Assembly (NCBI GenBank): GCA_039795895.1
Contig: JBDKKW010000001.1
Location: 18,837-82,836, forward strand
DNA from: Candidatus Parcubacteria bacterium
Lineage (GTDB): Bacteria > Patescibacteriota > Minisyncoccia > Phycocordibacterales > JBAYGS01
Reading direction: 5' to 3'
DNA: 64,000 nt
The notes under the pieces were generated by a model that was not told the origin of the DNA, did not search any database, and was given only the letters and a program-made list of their open reading frames with translations. The position numbers and the translations under genes are program-made. This document shows positions 8,938-64,000 of the stretch, one piece after another. The stretch's first letter is position 1. Every line of letters starts with the position of its first letter.

Positions 8938-8984
8938 GATTCAAGAATTAAGAATGAAAAAATACGGAGATATGAGGGCAATTA

Positions 8985-9105
8985 TAGCAGACAACAGACA
9001 AGAGACAACAGATTGGAGTATGGAACGAAAAGACAGGGCGTTCGCGAAGCGAACGCCCTGTCTTTTCGTTGTCTGTAGTCTGTTGTCTGTGTTCTGTTAT
9101 CTACC
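8985..9105. repeat. Long extended palindrome with a 21-bp perfect core ACGAAAAGACAGGGCGTTCGC-gaa-GCGAACGCCCTGTCTTTTCGT
   Basis: Flanking imperfect arms cagacaacagacaagagacaacag versus tgtctgtagtctgttgtctgtg. Located in the divergent intergenic region between trxB and ORF 9184. Confidence 0.7.
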
Positions 9106-9183
9106 CATTATATTTTGCTTTTTTACCCCTTTTAGACTACTATTTTTGTAGAACTGGACTTGTTGAAAGAAAAGAGGTGACTT

Positions 9184-9768
9184 ATGGTGAAAATCATCGC
9201 TGTTGGCACTGATTGTCAGTTTGGGATGGAAGACTTTGTAGTGAAACTGACCCGCAAGATACCGATTCACTGGCAGAGAATCTTCCCGGCGTGGCATGTG
9301 GTGATCATTGATCACTCACAGACCTTTCGGACCGTTGATTCCTTGTGGTCGGTATTTAAGCAGGGTGGATTTGATGCTCGCAATTATTCAGCTATGGCTG
9401 ATAATGCCGATGACTGGTGGTCAGTACGAGTCGCGCTTCAGCCACCAAACGAAAAGAGTATTGCTTGGGTCGTTTGGATTCGGCACTCAGAAGATCGTGC
9501 ACTACTTCGCTTCTTGTTTTTTGTCGAAGTGGGAGCGATTCTCTGGGGGAGCAATGCGCATCTCCGGACACTCTGGGGCTTTTCGGCACTGCAACACTGT
9601 GGGGTGAAGTCCGAAAATGATTCCGGACAGATGTTTTGTGAGGGATTTGCACATTATATGATTGATCGCCGTCGGTCCTATATGTGTAACTCGCCCATCA
9701 ACCATTTTCTCCACGATTTGGATGATAAGATTCGGGCCGGACACCTTTCGCTCGAACTGCCGACGTAA
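9184..9768 (+). CDS. Hypothetical Trp-rich protein (194 aa)
   Basis: Strong RBS gaaaagaggtgacttATG. Followed by two terminators. Confidence 0.5.
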   Translation: MVKIIAVGTDCQFGMEDFVVKLTRKIPIHWQRIFPAWHVVIIDHSQTFRTVDSLWSVFKQGGFDARNYSAMADNADDWWSVRVALQPPNEKSIAWVVWIRHSEDRALLRFLFFVEVGAILWGSNAHLRTLWGFSALQHCGVKSENDSGQMFCEGFAHYMIDRRRSYMCNSPINHFLHDLDDKIRAGHLSLELPT

Positions 9769-14469: not shown

Positions 14470-14510
14470 AGAAAAGCCCCGAAAAATGTCCGACATTTTT
14501 CGGGGCTTTT
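14470..14510 (-). terminator. Terminator AAAAGCCCCGAAAAATGtccgaCATTTTTCGGGGCTTTT after hisS
   Basis: Perfect hairpin with flanking A/T runs. Confidence 0.6.
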
Positions 14511-19436: not shown

Positions 19437-19655
19437 ATGGACACAGAAAAAAGAGAAAGGATTTATATGCATGACGACTTGTGGAAGTGGGGATTGTTTT
19501 TGGTCGGGATTGCTGTGTGGATTTGGTACGCGATCATCGAGATTCATGATTGCGAACGAACCGATCACAAAGTAGTTTGCGTGATTTTCGGAATACTCCC
19601 ACCACTTTGCTTTTTGTGTGCTATTGGGATGTATTTCTGTAACCGGTTCTTTTGA
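19437..19655 (+). CDS. Small membrane protein (about 72 aa)
   Basis: MDTEKRERIYMHDDLWKWGLFLVGIAVWIWYAII..., with two TM helices. Confidence 0.35.
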   Translation: MDTEKRERIYMHDDLWKWGLFLVGIAVWIWYAIIEIHDCERTDHKVVCVIFGILPPLCFLCAIGMYFCNRFF

Positions 19656-19955
19656 TTCAAAATTGAAACCCCACGATACCCTTCTTAGGTGTATCGTGGG
19701 GTTTTCCTTTATCGATAACGAACGAGAATCCTTTTGGTGTATGTTGCGGAGTTGAGCCAGCAGGGTCAGTCAAGAGATGTGTCTGCACATTATCTTGACT
19801 GTGGCGAGACGAGTGAGAAAGTGCGGGGCACTTTCGCAAGACTCATTGAGATTCTTTCTTTAAAAATCCAATGAGTGGACAGTTCCTGTAAGGAATAGGA
19901 AAAGCCGGCGCTGGCCGGCTTTATCCGCGTACACCAAAAGTGATGGAGTGAGTCT

Positions 19956-21191
19956 TTACTTCTTATCTCCTGTGAACGCCAGTGTCATCTTCTGCTCCTT
20001 CGGATCAAACAAAGTGATTTTAAATGGATACACCTTACCGAGCTCGAGCTTCTTGCGAAGCATATCTTCACTACCAAACTCTGATACATGCACAAGACCT
20101 GCTACACCTTCTTCGATTGAAGCGAGTGCACCATGCTTGTTGAATTTGATAATCACACCAGAGACAGTCTGCTCTTTCTTGTATTTCTTAGCAGCTTCTT
20201 TCCATGGATTTTCCTTGAGTGCCTTGATTGAAAGCGATACTTTGCCATCCTTTACTTCAATCACTTTCACGCGCACTTTGTCGCCAATCTTGTAGAGTGT
20301 TTTTGGATTCTCAACGAGTGCCCAATCGATTTCAGAAATGTGCACCAAGCCTTCAAGACCCTCTTCGACTTTCACGAAGATACCAAAGTCGACAAGGCCG
20401 GTCACTTCGCCAGTTAATTCATCGCCAACCGCATATTTGACGGTCATCTTCTCTTTCTCTTTTTCTACCGGACTCTTTTCAGAGAAGATAAGTTTACCTT
20501 CCTTTGGATCTGAGCCGATGATTGAGACGGTGAGGCGAGTGCCTACCAATTTTCGCAACTCTTCAAGAATGCGATCCTTGTCGCCATCCTGTACGCGAGG
20601 GTAGTGATCAGCTTTGAGCTGAGACGCTGGCAAGAAGCCAACAATCCCTTGCCACTCCATAATCAAACCACCCTTGTTTGCTTCCTTTACGGTAAGTTCA
20701 ACGAGAGTCTTGTTTTTGATAATGTCTTCTGCCTCACTCCAGATGAGTGCCTGTCGAGCTTCCTTGAGTGACAACTCGATGTAGCCTTCAGGGTGTTCAG
20801 TATCAACCACTTTTGCAGCGATGGTGTCGCCGATGTTGATCTTTTTAATGATGTCGCGGGCATTGATGTATTCACGACCGTAAATAATACCCGTGCCGAT
20901 AGGGGCAAGGTCAACATACACGCCAGATTTATCAATCGCAATGACCGGACCTTCTACCAAGTCACCAATCGCTGGTGGATTTTTACTGTCTGCCAAAAGC
21001 TGATCCATGACGGTGAGTTTTTTTGGACTCACTTCCTCAGAAGCTTCGACAGCTTTTACCTTTGAAGCTTTTGCTTTCGCTGGAGCTTCTTTTTTTGCTG
21101 GGGTCTCGGTGGTTGCGGTCTTGGTTGCAACTTCCGCTACATCTGCTTTTGCTTCGTCTTTCTTCTTACGTGAAAAAATACCTAATACCAT
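19956..21191 (-). CDS. rpsA: 30S ribosomal protein S1 with a Lys/Ala-rich N-terminus
   Basis: Multiple S1 domains (..GDLVEGPVIAIDKSGVYVDL.., ..GTRLTVSIIGSD.. and others). The long N-terminal extension in the ORF track was trimmed to MVLGIFSRKKK. Confidence 0.9.
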   Translation of the reverse strand: MVLGIFSRKKKDEAKADVAEVATKTATTETPAKKEAPAKAKASKVKAVEASEEVSPKKLTVMDQLLADSKNPPAIGDLVEGPVIAIDKSGVYVDLAPIGTGIIYGREYINARDIIKKINIGDTIAAKVVDTEHPEGYIELSLKEARQALIWSEAEDIIKNKTLVELTVKEANKGGLIMEWQGIVGFLPASQLKADHYPRVQDGDKDRILEELRKLVGTRLTVSIIGSDPKEGKLIFSEKSPVEKEKEKMTVKYAVGDELTGEVTGLVDFGIFVKVEEGLEGLVHISEIDWALVENPKTLYKIGDKVRVKVIEVKDGKVSLSIKALKENPWKEAAKKYKKEQTVSGVIIKFNKHGALASIEEGVAGLVHVSEFGSEDMLRKKLELGKVYPFKITLFDPKEQKMTLAFTGDKK

Positions 21192-21399
21192 ATAATTTAT
21201 TTCGGCGCTGGCTTCCGTTCTGAGTATACTGGTCGATGGTGGCGAGAATCGGCACACAAGACCCATGTCACAAACGGCGTTATCCAAACTCCGGACTATT
21301 AATGGACGAGTGATTAGTATACTTAAAAAGAGGGGAGTGTCAACGAGTGTAGACAAGGAGACATTAGTAGTTAGACATTAGACCGGAGAGATCCCCAAT

Positions 21400-21510
21400 T
21401 CTCCCTTATTAAAGGGAGCACTTCATTCTGATGAAGGAGGGATTTTTTGACTCAAAATCCTCCGCCTAGAGTACTAGGCACCTCCTTTAATAAGGAGGAA
21501 TCAGAAAAAA
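21400..21510. other. Cluster of five consecutive short hairpins with SD-like GGAGG/AGGGAG sequences in their stems
   Basis: CTCCCTTattaAAGGGAG; CTTCATtctgATGAAG; GGAGGGATTTTttgactcAAAATCCTCC; CCTAGagtaCTAGG; CCTCCTTtaataAGGAGG. Confidence 0.5.
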
Positions 21511-21590
21511 CACCATTCCAATTTCACACACCGATTTTCCGCCAAGAATGCCTTGTTTCTAGGGCTCGTTTAGCGTACTATTGAAACACT

Positions 21591-21622
21591 TGTATTTATA
21601 TATAATCTGTGCTATAATAGCA
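21591..21622 (+). promoter_or_regulatory. Promoter TTGTAT-N17-TATAAT for the gene at 21651
   Basis: cacttgtatttatatataatctgtgctataat. Confidence 0.5.
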
Positions 21623-21650
21623 ATCAGAAAATAAGCACCTTAGAAAGATT

Positions 21651-30665: not shown

Positions 30666-30947
30666 GTGAACACTGTCTACGCTGAAATCAACGCAAACTC
30701 GGCTGATCCATTGATCGCTAAGGTTTTGACACTCGTGGTCAATCCACTCGTTGGTTTCTTGTTTGCGCTGGCGGTACTCTACTTTCTCTGGGGTGTCTTC
30801 AAGTTTATTCAACACTCTGAAGACAGTACTGCAAGAGAGGAAGGACAGCAACATATGCTCTGGGGGGTCATCGGGATTGTGATTATGGTGTCGGCATACG
30901 GCTTGATTCACTTCATTCAAAATTCGTTGGCAGTGATCGGGGCGTAG
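30666..30947 (+). CDS. TrbC/VirB2-like small membrane protein, paralog 5
   Basis: ..FIQHSEDSTAREEGQQHMLWGVIGIVIMVSAYGLIHFI. Confidence 0.5.
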   Translation: MNTVYAEINANSADPLIAKVLTLVVNPLVGFLFALAVLYFLWGVFKFIQHSEDSTAREEGQQHMLWGVIGIVIMVSAYGLIHFIQNSLAVIGA

Positions 30948-31143
30948 GAATAGAAACGAGATTCAAGAATCTAGATGTAAGTGAAGAAAAAGCGACGAAG
31001 GCGAAAGCCTTCGTCGCTTTTTCATCCTATCCTTAATTCTTAAATCTTGATTCTGGGTTTCATTCTACCCAAAAGAAAACCCCGTAGAGTGCCAGTGTGG
31101 CGCTCTACGGGGGCGATTTGTGCGAGATACTCCGACTTTCGGA

Positions 31144-31632
31144 TTATAGCTCGCGAATGAACAAGGCGACCGATTCTCGACCGGGCGCTTTGAAGGAAAC
31201 ACTCCATTTTGCACCACAGTCCACATGACTGTCGGGGGTAAGGAGTACAGGCTTGTTGGTATTTCCTTCAGGATAGGCTATGACAGTTCCGCTACGAATG
31301 ACTTCGTATCGTGCTCCGGGAGCAAGCTCTATCTGAAGATCTACCAATCGAGTGACTTCACCTGGGTAGGCAGTAAGAGAAATTTCGCGTTTGGGGCGAA
31401 CTTCGCTCGGCCTGCTTGCGGAGGTATGGGAAACTTTCTTTGAGTTGTCGTAACAACCCTTGAAACCCCACACCAAGATACCGACTATCACCAGAAACTT
31501 CCAGTTGTTGCCGAACCAGGTTTTGACGCTGGTGCCAGCACCTGCAGGAAGCGAGGGGAGTGTCGGTGTTCCGAATGCAGCGATGAGGGTGGTGATAACC
31601 ACCACTCCCACTACGATCCATACCCAGATCAT
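31144..31632 (-). CDS. Membrane protein, possibly NfeD-like partner of the upstream SPFH protein
   Basis: Two N-terminal TM helices plus a soluble C-terminal region. It overlaps the upstream gene by 4 nt (ATGA). Confidence 0.4.
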   Translation of the reverse strand: MIWVWIVVGVVVITTLIAAFGTPTLPSLPAGAGTSVKTWFGNNWKFLVIVGILVWGFKGCYDNSKKVSHTSASRPSEVRPKREISLTAYPGEVTRLVDLQIELAPGARYEVIRSGTVIAYPEGNTNKPVLLTPDSHVDCGAKWSVSFKAPGRESVALFIREL

Positions 31633-32699
31633 GGTGTACCTCCTTTTTTTGTGTCATCCTCTACGAGGAGCTGGGCTCCACCACCAAGGACGAGGGTGCC
31701 TTGATGCTTTTGAATCGCATCAGCAAGCCCGCGTCTTGCTTGGGGGTCGTGTTTTTGCAAACGCTCGTAGCGAGCCGCTTCAACTTCGACGTCAGCCATA
31801 CCTTTCGTTCTTCCTGCGGTAGCCAATCTTTCGATGGCTTTTGCATCGGCTTCAGTCTTTGTTGCGAGGACTTTAGCAGCTAGTTCGGCTGCCTTAATGT
31901 TTGCCTCACCCTCAAGCTGAGCTCGTGCAGTCTTTTCCGCTGCGTCAGCGAGACCACCAGCCACGTCGTAGCCTAAGAATTCGGCGGAGTTGAATTTCAC
32001 TCCACACATTTCCAAGAGACTAAGACTTACTGCACTGGTCAGCGTCGTATTGAGACCCATGACTCGGGCACTCAATTGGTTTACGTGTGCTGGAGTATTG
32101 GCACGGAAGTCAACCGATGTCTGCGAACGCAGATAATCGGTCGCCACTGCCGTAATCTTTGCAGTGGCGTTGGCGAGCCAATCGGGAGTCTTGAAGAGCA
32201 TTGTCTCCACATTGACCGCTTCGATCGTGACCAAGAGTCTCAGATTGATTTTTGCCCCATCTGCAGTCTCGGCATCAGTGATTTCGATTGCATACGGGAA
32301 TCGGAAGTAAACGCTCATCGCGTCACCATCTCTTGCTTCGATTGTGTGCTCCTTTGCATCTTTCTTTTTTGTCCACTTGTTCCAGTGGAATGGATAGGTG
32401 TAGATACTACGGAAGGGCGGAACACCGATCCAATAGATTCCATACCAACCATTGGGACCCGCTACGCCGGGGGTGTGTTTGATCACACCTGTGCTTGGAT
32501 CGATCGAGTAGTCCCTAATACAGGATATAAACTCGTGTTGGGTTTTTCCACTCATGATGGTCAGTATCTGACCTTCAGGGAGCATGACCCAACCAATACC
32601 TTTTTTTGCTAGGATATAGATCCATAAGGGGATCATCGCTAGCAAAACGAGAACCGCGATTCCGAATTGAATCGGATGTTGTGCGATAATTTCGTTCAT
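31629..32699 (-). CDS. SPFH/band-7 (stomatin/flotillin/HflK-like) family membrane protein
   Basis: N-terminal TM helix, a central SPFH-like region, and an Ala/Glu/Lys-rich coiled C-terminus (AEKTARAQLEGEANIKAAELAAKVLATKTEADAKAIERL). Confidence 0.55.
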   Translation of the reverse strand: MNEIIAQHPIQFGIAVLVLLAMIPLWIYILAKKGIGWVMLPEGQILTIMSGKTQHEFISCIRDYSIDPSTGVIKHTPGVAGPNGWYGIYWIGVPPFRSIYTYPFHWNKWTKKKDAKEHTIEARDGDAMSVYFRFPYAIEITDAETADGAKINLRLLVTIEAVNVETMLFKTPDWLANATAKITAVATDYLRSQTSVDFRANTPAHVNQLSARVMGLNTTLTSAVSLSLLEMCGVKFNSAEFLGYDVAGGLADAAEKTARAQLEGEANIKAAELAAKVLATKTEADAKAIERLATAGRTKGMADVEVEAARYERLQKHDPQARRGLADAIQKHQGTLVLGGGAQLLVEDDTKKGGTP

Positions 32700-44986: not shown

Positions 44987-45136
44987 ACTAGGCTCCTAAA
45001 CGCTTGAAAACGAACTATTCCATATATAAGCGTACTCCTTCCGTACCCCCTGTCAACGCACATAAAAACAGTGTCATTTTGAGTAAAATAGTCAAAAAGC
45101 CCAGAAAATCGTTGCGATTTTCTGGGCTTTTCTGTA

Positions 45137-46285
45137 TTACGCCACCACCACTCTCCGCAACTGTTCTGGAATATGAATGAAGATCTCGTACGGGCTGGTC
45201 TCGCACAGTTTGGCAATATGCTCAGCGGAGTTTGGCGCGTTTCGGTCGGTACCGATTACGGTAACAAGGTCATTAAGTTTTGGATTCGGTACAGCACCAA
45301 TGTCGATTGTGGTGATATTCATGCTGACCCTACCGACGATCGGACATGGAACGTCTTTGATATATACAACTCCTTTGTTGGTGAGTCGCTTGTCCACACC
45401 CTCGTAGTAGCCAGCGGGAATGGTACCAATCAACATATCTTTTGGTGCGGTGAAGAGGAGTTCGTACCCAATATTTTCTCCTTTTTTCACGTGCTTAATA
45501 TTTCCTAATACGGCATGGAGTGAGAGGACTGGTTTGAAGGCAAGTGATTGTCCGAGCTTGGTGTGTAGGGCGAAGCCATAAAGACCAAGACCCGAACGAG
45601 AGACATTGGCGTCAATCTTGCTGTTGTAGTAGTTACCACTGGTAGCAGAGATGTGCCAGTACGTAAGCTTTGGAAACGATTTTTTGACAGTGATTACTGT
45701 TGCGTTCCAGAGATGGATTTGTTTTTCTGTAAAATGAGGATCGTCATTTGATGCGTCAGCGAAGTGCGAGCAGATACCTTCGAGGCGAATATAAGGATTA
45801 CTTTGGATCAGTGCAATTGCTTCGGTGATCTCGCGGTACAAAATTCCCTGGCGATGCATACCGGTGTCGATTTTGAGATGAAAGGTGGTCGGGCGAGTGA
45901 TTTTTGTTGCGAGGTCTTCAAGCTCAATAATACTCGTGATAGTGAACGCAATATTTTTCAGATGGTTTGCAAGAATATTTTTGGTGTGGGTGTAGCCCAT
46001 AATCAAAATTGGCGAAGTGATGTCTTCGTTGCGAAGCATTAGTGCCTCATAGTATGAGTCCACAACCAAAAAGGGGACTGATTGGGTGTCTAGAATTTCT
46101 GCGACCGCCACCAAGCCATGACCGTAGGCATTACTCTTGAGCATCGGGGCTACTCCTCTTTGCGGAGCAATCTTTCTGAGTTCGGCGAGGTTGTGAAGCA
46201 GGGCACTTTTCGAAATATGCACCTCAATCAGAGGTTCATATGGGTGATATGACTTGCGAAGATAGCGAAAGATACGACGAAACAT
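45137..46285 (-). CDS. alr: Alanine racemase
   Basis: PLP-lysine motif APMLKSNAYGHGL; 382 aa. Confidence 0.9.
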   Translation of the reverse strand: MFRRIFRYLRKSYHPYEPLIEVHISKSALLHNLAELRKIAPQRGVAPMLKSNAYGHGLVAVAEILDTQSVPFLVVDSYYEALMLRNEDITSPILIMGYTHTKNILANHLKNIAFTITSIIELEDLATKITRPTTFHLKIDTGMHRQGILYREITEAIALIQSNPYIRLEGICSHFADASNDDPHFTEKQIHLWNATVITVKKSFPKLTYWHISATSGNYYNSKIDANVSRSGLGLYGFALHTKLGQSLAFKPVLSLHAVLGNIKHVKKGENIGYELLFTAPKDMLIGTIPAGYYEGVDKRLTNKGVVYIKDVPCPIVGRVSMNITTIDIGAVPNPKLNDLVTVIGTDRNAPNSAEHIAKLCETSPYEIFIHIPEQLRRVVVA

Positions 46286-59982: not shown

Positions 59983-60828
59983 ATGGCATTTGCCAGTACC
60001 ACACAAAATAAGAATACCGCCATCAAACGTCGAAAGAAGAATCGGCTCTACCTCGGTATTTTTCTCATAGTATTGCTTGTTGCAATACTTTTTGCTGTGT
60101 CGGTTGTGGTCAGTCGGATGGATCAATTTCAAATCAAAGATGTGGTGATCTCTGGCAACACAGTCACTGACGGTACTCTGATCGAAGATGTGGTGCGTTC
60201 GGGTATGAAAGATACCTATTTTTGGATGTTTCCAAAATCAAACAGTTTTCTTTTTCCTGAAAAAGCGATTACGTCTGAAATGCTTTCTGAATTTGCTCGT
60301 GTCGAGAGAGTAGAATTGGTTCGGACCAATCTCTCAACTCTCGCGGTCAATATCACCGAACGAAAGCCAAAGGCCCTCTGGTGTGAAGGATTAAAGCCTT
60401 TTTTGACGGGGACGAGTATTGCTGATTGTTATTTCTTGGATGCAAGCGGTCTCATCTTTAGTCGAGCACCTGATTTTTCGCGAAATGTGTTTGTACGCTA
60501 TTTGGGAGAGATATCCGCCACGACGACTATCGGTGGTGTGTATGGCGACGGACATTTCCCCGAGTATGACTTTTTTGTGCAATCGCTCGTTGCTGAGCAT
60601 CTCCCCGTTACCGATTTGATTGTGCATAAAGATGGCAATCGAGAACTATATTTGTCTTCGGGTGTGAAGATTTTGTTTGATAACCGCCAAGATTTGAGTG
60701 TGGTGCTTACGAATATTAAGTTGATTATTGAGAAGGATGAGTTGTCATTGCTGTCAGTGACACCGAGATTTGAATATGTAGACTTGCGCTACGGCAACAA
60801 GGTCTTTTACAAAAATCGGCAAAATTAA
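59983..60828 (+). CDS. FtsQ/DivIB-like cell-division protein (TM plus POTRA-like domain)
   Basis: N-terminal basic segment plus TM helix, then QIKDVVISGNTVTDGTLIEDVV.. The family call is tentative. Confidence 0.5.
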   Translation: MAFASTTQNKNTAIKRRKKNRLYLGIFLIVLLVAILFAVSVVVSRMDQFQIKDVVISGNTVTDGTLIEDVVRSGMKDTYFWMFPKSNSFLFPEKAITSEMLSEFARVERVELVRTNLSTLAVNITERKPKALWCEGLKPFLTGTSIADCYFLDASGLIFSRAPDFSRNVFVRYLGEISATTTIGGVYGDGHFPEYDFFVQSLVAEHLPVTDLIVHKDGNRELYLSSGVKILFDNRQDLSVVLTNIKLIIEKDELSLLSVTPRFEYVDLRYGNKVFYKNRQN

Positions 60829-61021
60829 CTCGTCTGCTTTGTTGCGTTCAGGATTTTCTATTCGCCGTACGTCTAGTACGACTCAGTCGAAAATCCTTCC
60901 GCGCCTGATTCAGCAGAATCACCTACTGGGTCCCATCCGAGTTAATTTTGCCGATTTTAGGAATACAAGCGATTTAAGTAAAAAGAAAAGCCACACGTAT
61001 GCTCGTGTGGCTGTAAGTAAA

Positions 61022-61465
61022 CTACCTCAGACTTTCCGGAGGCTTCTGCATAAAGGTGACCCACATTCCCATATAGGCCATCTTTCCGTTGTAGAGAGCG
61101 ATCTCGGGGGAGACCGAAACGACCGGACCAACGATTTTTGCGGTGCTGTCGAAGGCATTGAGCATCACCTTGTAATCGGGAAGTGGAATCCGTAGACCAT
61201 TGGTGGCGTCTACTTGGTAGAAGTAGAAGACATTGCCCTGCTGGAGTGATCCAAGTTTACCACCATTTTGGGTGAGTGCTTCGCCATCCTTGAGAGTCAG
61301 TGATTTCTCATGTTCAAGCTCGAGTTGCCGAAGTGCTTTTGCGTCGTGGCTTTTTATTGCATGATACGTTACGAATCCTGTAAGTGTGAATAACGCCAAG
61401 ACAGCAATGGTTATTGGTAGAGCCGCTGGAATTGAGAGCTCGAAGCTCCTTGTTTGTGGGGACAT
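61022..61465 (-). CDS. Membrane-anchored hypothetical protein
   Basis: Start trimmed to MSPQTRSFELSIPAALPITIAVLALFTLTGFV.. (one TM). Confidence 0.45.
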   Translation of the reverse strand: MSPQTRSFELSIPAALPITIAVLALFTLTGFVTYHAIKSHDAKALRQLELEHEKSLTLKDGEALTQNGGKLGSLQQGNVFYFYQVDATNGLRIPLPDYKVMLNAFDSTAKIVGPVVSVSPEIALYNGKMAYMGMWVTFMQKPPESLR

Positions 61466-61573: not shown

Positions 61574-62617
61574 ATGATTTCTGGATTCTGGAAAAACCTC
61601 AAAAAACCCTTTTTTGTACTGGCGCCGATGGCGGATGTGACCGACTGCGTCTTTCGGGCGCTGATTGCAAAATATTCTAATCACGGAAAAGCTTCTGGTG
61701 GGCCGGATGTCTTTTGGACCGAATTCGTATCGGCGGATGGTCTATGTAATCCACACGGCAGAGAACACCTTTTGATTGACCTGAAATATTCTGAAGCGGA
61801 GCGTCCGATTGTAGCCCAGCTCTTTGGAAGCAATGTAGAGAATATGGAAAAAGCTTCGGCATTTGTGGCGAGTCTCGGCTTTGATGGTATTGATATTAAT
61901 ATGGGTTGTCCTGACAAAACGATTGAAAAGCAGGGAGCTGGAGCGGCAATGATCAAAGATTTATCAAAAGCGAAAGAGATTATTCGCGCCGTAAAGCGTG
62001 GCGCGCCGAATCTACCTGTCTCAGTAAAGACTCGCATTGGCTACAACAAAAATGAAATTGATACTTGGGTACGGGGATTGCTCGAAGAAGATTTGTCAGC
62101 ACTCACGATTCACGCCCGCACTCGAAAAGAGATGTCGATGGTTCCGGCACGGTGGGAGCACGTTCGTGAGGTGGTGGAATTAAAAAACAAAATGGGTAAG
62201 GACACACTGATTATTGGCAATGGCGATGTGCTCGATAGTGCTGATGCTCGAAAGAAGGTGAGTGAGACTGGATGCGACGGAGTGATGCTTGGGCGGGCGA
62301 TTTTCGGCAATCCATGGCTCTTTGACCAGACTAAAGGGATTGCGGTGGGGCAGAGTGTGGAAGATGATCGAGTTGGACTGGGCTCAGGGAATCATAAAGT
62401 GACTGTATCGGAGCGACTGCGAGTACTCGTGGAGCATGCTGAGGAATTTGAGCGAGTATTATGTGAGCACAAAAGCTTTGCAGTAATGAAAAAGCATTTC
62501 AAGGCGTACGTAAACGGTTTTGATGGCGCAAAAGAGTTACGAATGCAACTAATGAGCACAGAAGACTCAAAACAAGTGAGGGGAATCGTGGATAGTTTTC
62601 TAAAAAAGGCTCTATAG
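61574..62617 (+). CDS. tRNA-dihydrouridine synthase (Dus family)
   Basis: FVLAPMADVTDCVFRAL..., catalytic-Cys region ..DINMGCP.., and TIM-barrel FMN-binding motifs. The specific Dus paralog is not identifiable from sequence alone. Start trimmed to MISGFWKN. Confidence 0.85.
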   Translation: MISGFWKNLKKPFFVLAPMADVTDCVFRALIAKYSNHGKASGGPDVFWTEFVSADGLCNPHGREHLLIDLKYSEAERPIVAQLFGSNVENMEKASAFVASLGFDGIDINMGCPDKTIEKQGAGAAMIKDLSKAKEIIRAVKRGAPNLPVSVKTRIGYNKNEIDTWVRGLLEEDLSALTIHARTRKEMSMVPARWEHVREVVELKNKMGKDTLIIGNGDVLDSADARKKVSETGCDGVMLGRAIFGNPWLFDQTKGIAVGQSVEDDRVGLGSGNHKVTVSERLRVLVEHAEEFERVLCEHKSFAVMKKHFKAYVNGFDGAKELRMQLMSTEDSKQVRGIVDSFLKKAL

Positions 62618-62659
62618 AGCCATATTTATGCTATTGCGGGTGGTGGGGTGATAAAGTGC

Positions 62660-63042
62660 TTGACTTTTATATATGAGTATGCTATGATACTCTCCAGACA
62701 GTCGAGTTGGTTTCTGAATCGAAGGGATTTACCTAAAGGTGAATCAATCAGAAGCTCGCACTGTGTTGTACAGCCTAACCGGCCCACTCGCGAAATTCGC
62801 GCCTGAGAAGGAGGGTAAAAACACACGGAAGCCAGTTTAAGGTAAGATCAATCCTCAGAAAGAGATCAAAACCTACTGGCCTTGTCGACAAAGTTCGTTA
62901 AAAAATTATCAGATAAATAATCTGATAAAGAGTAACGGGTCGGATAAGCCGACAAAACTCTCACCATTAACCGACCAGAGACTGGCGCGCCACATCGAAG
63001 GCCCCGCCAAGTCTCCGGTCACAACAAAGAAAGGAGGTAAAA
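62660..63042 (+). promoter_or_regulatory. Promoter TTGACT-N17-TATGAT plus a long (about 350-nt) untranslated leader; candidate cis-regulatory RNA
   Basis: cttgacttttatatatgagtatgctatgat, then a long ORF-free stretch ending in the strong SD aaaggaggtaaaaATG. Confidence 0.4.
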
Positions 63043-63273
63043 ATGTTCTATGAAAGACTGTGGTTGCGGTTGCACGGAGCGTTTGTGGAGGTAGGCGAAT
63101 TTCTCGCTCACCTCCAGACGATTTTGCGGAACCGTGTTCGGGATATCAAGAAAAGCATTTGCGATTCTGCCATTGTGCAGAAGGGTGCTTGCTTGAATGT
63201 CCCCATCAGTCGGGCGGGTCTGTCGGAGCTGTCGCTCTGGCCGATTAAGCCATCGTGGAAAATCCTGAGTTGA
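63043..63273 (+). CDS. Small hypothetical protein (76 aa) with an unusually strong SD
   Basis: AAAGGAGG 6 nt upstream of the ATG; MFYERLWLRLHGAFVEVGEFLAHLQ... Confidence 0.45.
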   Translation: MFYERLWLRLHGAFVEVGEFLAHLQTILRNRVRDIKKSICDSAIVQKGACLNVPISRAGLSELSLWPIKPSWKILS

Positions 63274-63494
63274 GTCTGGGTGTCGGCGTTGGACCGAAGG
63301 TATAGAATGATGGGTATCTTGCGCCCCGGTGGGCCCTTGATATAACTGTCGGACTGTATTCAGTAGGAAACATGACACAGAAAAATGTGTCCCAACGACG
63401 CCCTAGTCCCAAACAACCACCCCGTTTTGCAATCTCGTTCCTACGAGAAAGCGAAGCGGGGTTTTCTTTTATCTGAATGGTGTCGTTGTTCTGA

Positions 63495-63540
63495 AAACCC
63501 CAGAAAATTGCCCAAAGATTTTCTGGGGTTTCTTATTTTT
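63495..63540 (+). terminator. Terminator AAACCCCAGAAAATtgcccaaagATTTTCTGGGGTTTCTTATTTTT
   Basis: Hairpin plus T-run. A second weaker element AAGCGGGGTTTTCTTTT lies at about 63455. Confidence 0.6.
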
Positions 63541-63640
63541 ATATATTTTAATTTATACATGATAATTCTCCTGAAAGATTGACAATATCTATCAATGTGT
63601 ATATAGTGCACTCAGAAAACGTCCTTTCCAGAAAAAAACT

Positions 63641-64000
63641 ATGAAAAAGCTGAACTCGGTGGCCATTCTTTTGGCCTTTCTCTCACTCGTGTCTCCCTGT
63701 TTTGGGGCGACAAACTTCGTTTTGACCTCGGTCTCGGACCCGGTCAAAACCACTTTTACGGTGGCGAGCAGTAACGTCCTGTTGTCGAGCTGGAATCTCC
63801 AGATCTCGACCAATGGAGAGCCGTTTGCCGATGTGGTGGGGACCATCAATTTCGGCTCGGTGGACAATAAAAGCGTAGGTTTTTATGTGCTCCATCCCAC
63901 AACCTACGGGTTTTATCGCGGAAAGACGGTGCTTTCGGGCACCAATGCTTACTCGACCACAAACCTGTTGTTTACGACTCAGACGGCGGTTACTCAAGGG
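63641..64000 (+). CDS. Secreted hypothetical protein, 3'-partial (runs off right edge); not in the ORF track
   Basis: ATG at 63641: MKKLNSVAILLAFLSLVSPCFGATNFVLTSVSDPVKTTFTVASSNVLLSSWNLQISTNGEPF..., with no stop before the window end. Confidence 0.5.
   Translation, partial: MKKLNSVAILLAFLSLVSPCFGATNFVLTSVSDPVKTTFTVASSNVLLSSWNLQISTNGEPFADVVGTINFGSVDNKSVGFYVLHPTTYGFYRGKTVLSGTNAYSTTNLLFTTQTAVTQG

Follow-up and report, generated by a model that had tools for sequence, protein, structure and literature searches.

What is encoded between dus and the next gene in this parcubacterial genome? The pipeline gene call on an identical Logan contig (L001) leaves the interval without a gene, the NCBI annotation lists a 76-codon ORF within it as a hypothetical protein, and the original prediction described it as a long leader controlling a small protein. 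Within the 64-kb stretch of DNA that was analysed (the window), positions 62660–63472 probably form an autonomous gene whose product is a large, extensively folded RNA of ~780 nt; transcription would run from a consensus sigma-70 promoter to an intrinsic terminator that is itself conserved. What the prediction separated into a leader of 350 nt and an ORF of 76 aa would, together with the 200 nt located 3' of this ORF, be three parts of one RNA. The best reading is a lineage-specific large structured non-coding RNA (ncRNA), possibly still translated. At present, this is a well-supported candidate ncRNA family rather than a mechanism.

The upstream neighbour, dus (tRNA-dihydrouridine synthase; 61574–62617, plus strand), was identified by its Pfam domain (PF01207, E = 2e-61) and by synteny. 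The sigma-70-type promoter named in the original prediction is indeed present at 62660–62688 on the same strand, with the -35 box TTGACT (62660–62665), a 17-nt spacer, and the -10 box TATGAT (62683–62688). It matches the consensus at 10 of 12 positions, carries a TG just 5' of the -10 box (TG-n-TATGAT), and is kept as TTGACT-17-TATACT in lineages L082, L088, and L103. The -10 box is of the TGCTATACT type that also precedes other genes of the clade. The promoter scan by itself is weak evidence, since four promoter-like sites occur in 2 kb versus 2.2 ± 1.8 in shuffled sequences. Transcription would start at about 62695. The predicted transcript of ~780 nt (62695–63472, plus strand) comprises the entire structured RNA as delimited by folding, consensus pairs, and nhmmer matches. 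It ends in a compound intrinsic terminator (63419–63472, plus strand), which consists of the stem ACCCCGUUUUGC...GCGAAGCGGGGU and an inner stem CUCGU/ACGAG followed by UUUUCUUUU. This terminator corresponds to helix 26 of the fold (18 pairs, 100% of cells paired) and is nearly invariant; a simple terminator scan overlooked it because of the inner loop.

The element was detected in four lineages, namely those of the window, L082, L088, and L103, and always directly 3' of dus. The carriers are closely related groundwater and freshwater Parcubacteria (Patescibacteria/CPR) that form one narrow clade. L082 and L092 stem from wells H41/H52 of the Hainich aquifer. Full-length nhmmer matches were obtained only in L082, L083, L092, L090, L088, and L103. 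The window contains one copy, all carrying contigs have the element right after dus, and in 12 contigs of one lineage it occurs once, at an unchanged locus. The sister lineages L084–L087 and L089, in which Dus is 86–88% identical, lack it, as do the outgroups L093 and L094. In 80 GTDB species whose Dus is related at ≤66% identity, no match was obtained with nhmmer, using either the single sequence or a profile, or with covariance model R1. The latter recognizes the 3' domain of the RNA in the four lineages only. A scan of JGI metagenomes with CCTANTCCCAAACAACCACCCC returned the L082 lineage again, one chance match, and nothing else.

Folding points to the plus strand. The minimum free energy of the whole RNA is -293 kcal/mol (z = -9.4) on this strand versus -268 kcal/mol (z = -4.8) on the minus strand; the contig background, calculated for 280-nt windows, is z = -1.3 ± 2.2. 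The 349-nt leader has a fold z of -5.9. A consensus over three lineages comprises 186 pairs with 93% of cells paired. Double changes occur at 24 of these pairs, as compared to 10.5 ± 2.5 in shuffles (none of 500 reach 24) and 0–6 when the pairing is slid, although with only four lineages such covariation counts rest on few events. Within the ORF (four lineages), 12 of 32 pairs are compensatory and 98% of cells are paired, versus 0–3 and 39–47%, respectively, after sliding. The corresponding values for the 3' domain (four lineages) are 10 of 43 compensatory pairs and 92% of cells paired versus 38–47%. When each lineage was folded singly, the same hairpins arose out of different sequences. Indels are modular and remove or swap entire hairpins. 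The long-range helices 5, 7, and 11 are invariant and lack support. The compensatory changes and the above-neutral conservation point to ongoing purifying selection on the fold, with more than 20 helices kept in four lineages, many of them by compensatory substitutions and some within the ORF.

Sequence identity between lineages amounts to 62–77% in the 5' region, 58–69% in the ORF part, and 79–86% in the 3' part; the value for third codon positions of dus is 58–64%. The 5' region opens with a long hairpin (helices 1–4, 62698–62764; this and all following parts of the RNA are on the plus strand), which folds alike in the four lineages. Its inner stem is GGAUUUACC/GGUGAAUC in the window versus CAGAUCUG/CAGAUCG in the other lineages. 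A small GC hairpin, CGCGA-AAU-UCGCG, follows at 62787–62811. This is the GC-rich helix quoted in the original prediction; it does exist, but only in the window, being deleted or different in L082, L088, and L103. An SD-like motif, AGAAGGAGGGUAAAAA (motif 1, 62806–62821; direct repeat D1), is common to the four lineages. No start codon follows it, and a short CCCU/AGGG stem closes it in part. The hairpin formed by helices 8–10 (GCCAGU...ACUGGC, 62831–62880) is near-invariant in sequence and shows one fold in all four lineages. The segment 62905–62953 contains a variable peripheral hairpin, AUCAGAU/AUCUGAU, which is swapped for AUUAGG/CCUAAU in L082 and missing in L088 and L103, and then a conserved hairpin, GUCGG-AUAAG-CCGAC, which is retained with a U-A to C-G change. 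Helix 13 (62973–63020) is a long hairpin; L088 and L103 also have a long hairpin there, of different sequence. The second SD-like motif, AGAAAGGAGGUAAAA, lies together with an ATG in an A-rich unpaired linker (63028–63045) conserved in the four lineages.

The structure continues through the 76-codon ORF (63043–63273, plus strand) and for 200 nt past it, and both structure and conservation are strongest 3' of the ORF. Helix 14 (UGGAGGUAGGCGA/UCGCUCACCUCCA, 63086–63116; inverted repeat I5) retains the core GCGA-N5-UCGC in L088 and L103, while the whole hairpin is deleted in L082. The long hairpin of helices 16–18 (63140–63203) was recovered by independent folding in each lineage and displays compensatory double changes at 9 of its 17 pairs, with 97–100% of cells paired. 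Helix 19 (63213–63251), with the invariant core GUCGGAG/CUCUGGC, comprises 15 pairs, three of which are compensatory, including a loop-closing C-G to U-A change; 98% of its cells are paired. The 3' multi-helix domain (helices 21–25, 63278–63403) is made up of the outer stems GGGUGUC/GACGCCC and GUUGG/CCAAC, a long arm, and a small hairpin. In L103, the long arm has the same shape and an entirely different sequence. The most conserved unpaired stretch of the RNA, UAGUCCCAAACAACC, follows at 63404–63418; its portion TCCCAAACAACCACCCC is identical in the four lineages.

The alternative that survives best is that the transcript, an mRNA or dual-function RNA with long structured 5' and 3' UTRs, encodes a small protein (51–103 aa) that evolves fast and is translated from the strong ribosome-binding site, the output being either the peptide or translation through helices 14–19. 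We consider this possible, though unlikely. All four lineages keep the ORF open (76, 51, 103, and 79 aa), AAAGGAGGU and the ATG are conserved in each of them within the unpaired linker, the deletion in L082 is in-frame with the ATG and the reading frame retained, and the N-terminal residues MFY are common to three lineages. All 15 stop trinucleotides in the ORF span fall into the two other plus-strand frames and none in frame (roughly p = 0.02, with the window itself discounted), so that some selection for an open frame, i.e. for translation, may exist. The codon-usage score of the ORF (-0.03 to 0.22) exceeds the off-frame level (-0.16 ± 0.12); genes score 0.30 ± 0.15. AlphaFold2 predicts a confident N-terminal helix (pLDDT 84–90 for residues 1–30) within a product of mean pLDDT 63.6, the C-terminal half of which remains below 50. 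The annotation as a hypothetical protein also agrees with this explanation.

The substitution pattern argues against it. Codon periodicity is absent from the ORF, in which differences per codon position are flat (0.39–0.46, 0.27–0.38, and 0.31–0.43 versus 0.12, 0.05, and 0.40 in dus). Its dN/dS ratio is 0.65–0.86 versus approximately 0.07 for dus. The synonymous fraction among differing codons is 0.17–0.19 in frame and 0.08–0.27 off frame, whereas the values for dus are 0.76 and 0.03–0.09. The amino acid sequence, therefore, appears to drift near-neutrally, and no coding signature was found in any frame. The N-terminal 25 codons are dispensable, as evident from L082, and the stop codon shifts in L088, where the SD-to-ATG spacing is 12 nt. 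The sole invariant peptide block, GLSE..LWPI..SWK, is encoded by the invariant core of helix 19, which underlies its apparent conservation, and is predicted to be disordered (pLDDT < 50). Conservation of the ORF was rejected as a sign of a protein, since other frames are open over the same conserved block as well, and so is the minus strand, with an ORF of 119 aa. When the ORF alignment was used to search proteins (5.8 billion clusters and 1.84 billion representatives), only the same four lineages were retrieved; it was the exhaustive HMMER search that added L103, together with a spurious repeat protein (P0126). Pfam, PHROGs, and PADLOC gave no match for the ORFs, nor did Pfam for the minus-strand ORF. 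The genome, finally, shows no use of SD sequences at gene starts.

The latter point bears on how the SD-like motifs of the RNA are to be read. The strong SD, AAAGGAGG (63030–63037), is found ahead of the ATG at 63043 as originally predicted, but with a gap of 5 nt instead of 6, and it is not alone as the strongest in the window, because an equal AAAGGAGGT-N6-ATG occurs at 31645 on the minus strand. The accompanying remark on the weak SDs of most genes was correct and even understated: gene starts in this genome show no SD enrichment at all. Among Parcubacteria, the anti-SD motif was found in only 48% (PMC9297842). The RNA nevertheless retains two AAGGAGG(G/U)UAAAA motifs, which are complementary to a canonical 16S 3' tail. 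Given the lack of SD enrichment at gene starts, these motifs are likelier to be RNA- or protein-binding sites or special ribosome-capture sites than ordinary translation signals. One speculative extension, which we hold to be improbable, is a ribosome-engaging large RNA, born recently in a genome-reduced CPR bacterium, to whose exposed SD-like sites the 16S 3' tail or the 30S subunit would be recruited. Its role would be that of a ribosome sponge, sensor, or switch and not that of an mRNA or a classical sRNA, and translation of the unconstrained ORF would serve only ribosome loading or the remodelling of helices 14–19.

Still less probable is that the structure is incidental and the locus a non-functional leftover, either of a mobile element (a MITE-like insertion or the scar of a prophage or ICE) or of a decayed gene (a pseudogene). 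The presence/absence polymorphism among the sister lineages and outgroups would fit such an origin, as would the sequence of L103, which combines L082-like with L088-like parts in a mosaic, and the behaviour of the spacer 3' of dus as a rearrangement hot spot. The conserved promoter and terminator, and the purifying selection on the fold indicated by compensatory changes, speak against decay. A MITE was ruled out by the single copy in the window, the fixed locus, and the absence of terminal inverted repeats at the element ends. The flanks of the element, where a target-site duplication would lie, are highly diverged. No transposase, integrase, or other protein family was recognized among its six-frame ORFs in Pfam or PHROGs. 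Neither three pattern scans of viral contigs nor blastn in distant mode against phages and plasmids yielded a match; the 80 related genomes and, apart from the L082 lineage and the chance match, the JGI metagenomes were equally devoid of copies.

The least credible of these alternatives is the one proposed originally, namely a cis-regulatory leader (riboswitch, attenuator, or thermosensor), in which 350 nt of 5' sequence would control ORF expression in response to a signal. The 5' region is promoter-proximal, structured, and conserved, and a strong RBS comes after it. The absence of credible ORFs from this stretch was confirmed: the 348 nt at 62695–63042 contain only ORFs of 26–66 aa on either strand. 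However, Rfam cis-regulatory families, including aptamers, gave no match even at E ≤ 10, and the interval 62695–63043 contains neither a terminator-like site on the plus strand nor an SD-sequestering helix. No predicted fold, whether MFE, centroid, or consensus, pairs the SD or the ATG. The helix quoted in favour of a leader is not conserved, the peak of structure and conservation is located 3' of the ORF, and the putative target gene is not under selection at the protein level. Control of a small protein by the leader, as proposed, is also at odds with a structure that runs through the ORF to a conserved terminator.

Rfam 15 was searched with cmscan at the gathering threshold and at E ≤ 0.05 for the whole window, and at E ≤ 10 for positions 62500–63700. 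On both strands, only tRNAs and chance hairpin matches were obtained, with nothing at all between 62647 and 63190, and ARAGORN detected no tRNA or tmRNA in the region. Housekeeping RNAs (RNase P, tmRNA, 6S, SRP) were rejected on the grounds that no model matches and that the element is missing from close relatives.

Among the options initially offered, the independent sRNA comes closest to the large ncRNA preferred here, although ~780 nt is far above the size of an sRNA. The hallmarks of a large ncRNA were all found, namely a length above 500 nt, many covarying helices (24 of 186 pairs double-changed), and no coding signal. The RNA resembles OLE, GOLLD, and ROOL (also HEARO and raiA), the large "ornate" ncRNAs of bacteria whose function is at best partly known. 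With OLE, GOLLD, and ROOL it shares the size class (500–800 nt), the many helices with covariation, the apparent stand-alone organization, conservation that is explained without a protein product, and a patchy occurrence in uncultivated or environmental lineages. Yet no covariance model of the five families matches it, even at E ≤ 10 with permissive filters. Its distribution, four sister lineages and one fixed locus, is far narrower than those of OLE, GOLLD, and ROOL, it has no prophage or tRNA association, and it contains an open ORF with a perfect SD. Homo-oligomeric assembly of GOLLD, ROOL, and OLE has been revealed by cryo-EM (PMC12286853).

Three other kinds of bacterial RNA share some of its features. 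Dual-function RNAs, such as SgrS/SgrT, RNAIII/hld, and SR1/SR1P, also combine a structured RNA with a small ORF and its own RBS. They have a conserved peptide, a length of 100–500 nt, and a defined base-pairing seed, in contrast to the near-neutral peptide observed here; a search of the 64-kb window for trans targets of the conserved unpaired segments returned 10–12-mers at chance level only. Riboswitch and attenuator leaders are likewise promoter-proximal structured RNAs 5' of an SD and ATG, but the present RNA has no aptamer match or expression platform and possesses its own terminator 200 nt past the ORF. Type I toxin–antitoxin mRNAs (hok/sok-like) are similar in being folded over several hundred nucleotides, in long-range structure, in carrying a small ORF, and in their lineage-specific presence or absence. 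The ORF product is, by inspection, amphipathic and charged, unlike their short hydrophobic membrane peptides. The locus also differs in having no convincing antisense promoter (the only candidate is a 9/12 site on the minus strand, 63149–63121), no PADLOC match, and no peptide conservation.

The large structured RNA would most likely act in trans as a folded scaffold or binding platform. The candidate contact sites are its most conserved exposed elements, i.e. the two AAGGAGG(G/U)UAAAA motifs, the UCCCAAACAACC linker, and the invariant core of helix 19. For the very small, streamlined genomes of CPR/Patescibacteria, a conserved non-coding unit of ~0.8 kb is a notable investment. Large structured RNAs described from these bacteria are, to our knowledge, few. 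The combination of two perfect anti-SD-complementary motifs and an open, unconstrained ORF occurs here in a host without SD enrichment, and the RNA offers a possible handle on the ribosomal treatment of SD sequences in such organisms.

This CPR group permits a clean comparison: carriers and non-carriers among the sister lineages are distinguished by one locus, which makes the RNA evolutionarily young and its origin open to study. With such a young age and narrow distribution, it could also matter little to the cell. The element begins directly 3' of the dus stop codon, ahead of a second terminator located outside it (63495–63531, plus strand; a 15-bp stem and a T run). This terminator resembles the one directly 3' of dus in the element-free lineage L084 and is probably the ancestral dus terminator. 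Hairpins of the same type recur in the window at 14472–14510 and 45095–45131.

The tRNA-dihydrouridine synthase gene dus (61574-62617, + strand; Pfam Dus match, E = 2e-61) is followed by a gene for a structured RNA of ~780 nt (62660-63472, promoter included). This gene is real, lineage-restricted and previously undescribed, since the Rfam check proposed with the original prediction gave no match in Rfam 15. The predicted promoter was confirmed and consists of TTGACT (62660-62665), a 17-nt spacer, and TATGAT (62683-62688), with TG immediately 5' of the -10 box. Also confirmed were the leader lacking credible ORFs (~62695 to 63042) and the 76-codon ORF, which starts at 63043 and ends at 63273. 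The strong SD predicted for this ORF is present (AAAGGAGG, 63030-63037), with a spacing to the ATG at 63043 of 5 nt, not 6. It is not uniquely the strongest of the window: an equal, perfect AAAGGAGGT-N6-ATG is located at 31645 on the minus strand, 5' of a 162-aa ORF (31144-31632) that has no Pfam match and is among the very few strong-SD genes of the window. Folding of the 349-nt leader gives z = -5.9; the GC helix originally quoted as one of its features (~62787-62811) is restricted to the window sequence. On the identical Logan contig L001, the gene caller placed zero genes between dus and the next gene, which starts at 63641 and encodes a 176-aa signal-peptide protein.

The stretch from the promoter to a hairpin at 63495-63531 folds with z = -9.7, so that the structure extends past the ATG. 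In the alignment, the element-bearing lineages (the window and the related L082, L088, and L103) share the promoter (TTGACT-17-TATACT in the three relatives) and the entire region through a conserved compound terminator on the + strand (63419-63472; ACCCCGUUUUGC...GCGAAGCGGGGU, then UUUUCUUUU). Given its similarity to the terminator immediately 3' of dus in the related contig L084, the hairpin at 63495-63531 probably represents the former dus terminator. From the shared alignment and the comparison with L084, the element is a unit of ~810 nt (promoter plus ~780-nt RNA) between the dus stop codon and that hairpin. A recurrent terminator hairpin, AAACCCCAGAAAAU...AUUUUCUGGGGUUU, occurs at three sites (14472-14510, 45095-45131, and 63494-63532) and surfaces as spurious "MIR8008" Rfam matches on both strands; nhmmer links 63456-63543 with 45084-45158.

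The element encodes a structured RNA, read from the + strand. Folding of 62694-63475 yielded -293 kcal/mol (z = -9.4) for the + strand and -268 kcal/mol (z = -4.8) for the minus strand; the background for 280-nt windows of the contig is z = -1.3 ± 2.2. The RNAalifold consensus of three lineages comprised 186 pairs, with 93% of cells paired versus 37-41% with slid partners. Both sides had changed in 24 consensus pairs, as compared to 0-6 for slid partners and 10.5 ± 2.5 for shuffled alignments (0/500 reaching 24). Across all four lineages, 63132-63260, inside the ORF, contained 32 pairs (12 compensatory, 98% of cells paired) and 63272-63409 contained 43 pairs (10 compensatory, 92%). According to single-sequence folds, helices 1-4, 13, 16-18, 19, and 24 (numbered along the RNA) are the same hairpins made out of different sequences. 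Indels take out or swap entire hairpins: helix 14 is deleted in L082, and the hairpin at 62905 is swapped in L082 and missing in L088 and L103. The long-range helices 5, 7, and 11 are invariant and, therefore, have no covariation support. Four other stretches of the window (8961-9240, 30801-31080, 19601-19880, and 60761-61040) also fold strongly (z = -10.8, -7.6, -7.1, and -6.8; 12 shuffles) and are unmatched in Rfam; long terminators are one possible explanation, additional unannotated RNAs another.

The main rival explanation, a translated dual-function RNA, is doubtful. The SD and ATG of the ORF are conserved and unpaired, its codon usage is intermediate, and all four lineages keep its frame open, with 15/15 stop trinucleotides confined to the remaining + frames (p of roughly 0.02, window discounted). 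As a control, other frames and a 119-aa minus-strand ORF are likewise open over the same GC-richer block. The synonymous fraction of differing codons in the ORF was 0.17-0.19 in frame and 0.08-0.27 off frame, with flat differences across codon positions and dN/dS of 0.65-0.86; the corresponding values for the dus control were 0.76, 0.03-0.09, 0.12/0.05/0.40, and ~0.07. ORF length varies among the four lineages (76, 51, 103, and 79 aa); codons 2-25 are absent in L082 and 27 codons are added in L088. The sole invariant peptide block, GLSE..LWPI..SWK, coincides with the invariant core of RNA helix 19 and is predicted as disordered by AlphaFold2 (mean pLDDT of the whole model 63.6). Outside the four lineages, no homologues of the ORF were found among 5.8 billion clusters or 1.84 billion representatives, and Pfam, PHROG, and PADLOC searches gave no match. 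Translation of the ORF is possible; in our reading, the selected product is the RNA fold, and conservation is not at the level of the peptide sequence.

The motif AAGGAGG occurs 12 times in 128 kb (both strands). Two of these copies are inside the RNA, 222 nt apart (AGAAGGAGGGUAAAAA and AGAAAGGAGGUAAAAA); both are kept in all four lineages, and the first has no downstream start codon. SD-like 4-mers precede 16% of 64 ORF starts versus a background of 10.7%, i.e., SDs are not enriched, nor are they at 24 pipeline-called starts. Many starts in the window, L001, L082, and the outgroup L093 have a TGnTATACT -10 box 6-12 nt 5' of the ATG, the pattern expected for leaderless mRNAs, which points to leaderless or very-short-leader mRNAs being widespread in this clade. 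An anti-SD motif was reported for just 48% of Parcubacteria (PMC9297842). Accordingly, the two SD-like motifs of the RNA are unlikely to be routine translation signals. They have no conserved cis partner, because the helix 14 arm with CCUCC is deleted in L082. Three of the 12 AAGGAGG copies are located in the 294 nt 5' of rpsA (21357-21650; rpsA at 19956-21356, minus strand), which form two GGAGG/CCUCC-paired hairpins; one contains CACCUCCUUU, the canonical 16S 3'-tail sequence.

The element is reasonably likely to be a trans-acting scaffold or binding RNA. In its working it is closest to the orphan large structured ncRNAs OLE, GOLLD, and ROOL, but it is a member of none and has no covariance-model match. 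Its likeness to dual-function RNAs is limited to carrying an ORF, and its peptide is unlike those of type I TA systems. A riboswitch or attenuator is very unlikely, as no aptamer family matches and there is no expression platform. The original observation was borne out, and its interpretation was partly right. The evidence for the structure is solid and it is unusual to find SD-like motifs in an SD-poor genome, although only four lineages carry the element.

The source is named "Candidatus Parcubacteria bacterium" at NCBI, and judging from its Dus relatives the contig belongs to Patescibacteria/Parcubacteria (Paceibacteria-type MAGs). Close relatives were located via Dus and their loci retrieved and aligned; an exhaustive HMMER search queried with the aligned ORFs recovered L103, the fourth lineage. 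Gene order around dus is conserved (dprA-serS-ftsQ-like-dus-small secreted protein). As in the window, dus is followed by a spacer of ~0.95-1.05 kb in L082/L083 (Dus 90% identical) and L088 (89%). The spacer is 170 nt in L084-L087 (86%), holding just a terminator and the next gene's promoter, and ~215 nt in the element-free L089 (88%); the outgroups L093 and L094 (68-69%) have 25-42 nt. The outgroups indicate that absence of the element is the ancestral state. In the star-shaped Dus tree the two element-free lineages cluster; a single gain fits it, as does a gain with one loss. Only one copy of the element is present, in every case positioned after dus. It was not seen around dus in 80 related GTDB genomes, in a pattern scan of JGI metagenomes, or in the phages, plasmids, and viral contigs searched, and it is not bordered by terminal repeats. 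L103 combines segments resembling L082 with others resembling L088, a mosaic suggesting that populations have recombined.

Rearrangement has a hot spot in the spacer 3' of dus. L082 (6820-7050) and L103 (2157-2207) have an additional insertion of ~230 nt 3' of the RNA terminator. This insertion includes a separate long hairpin, GCACAAUGCCAUAUCAGCUAUAGCUGAUAUGGCAUUGUGC; a number of short-read contigs end within the insertion, and L095 and L096 differ at this point. The short spacer of L089 contains ACACAGAAAAAGUGU (2960-2985), which resembles the small helix 25 hairpin (63374-63391), either by chance or, possibly, as what a deletion of the element left behind. Across the dus stop codon (62608-62621), all element-bearing lineages have a 14-nt palindrome, GGCUCUAUAGAGCC, that L084 lacks; it may be the left insertion junction or a weak dus terminator.
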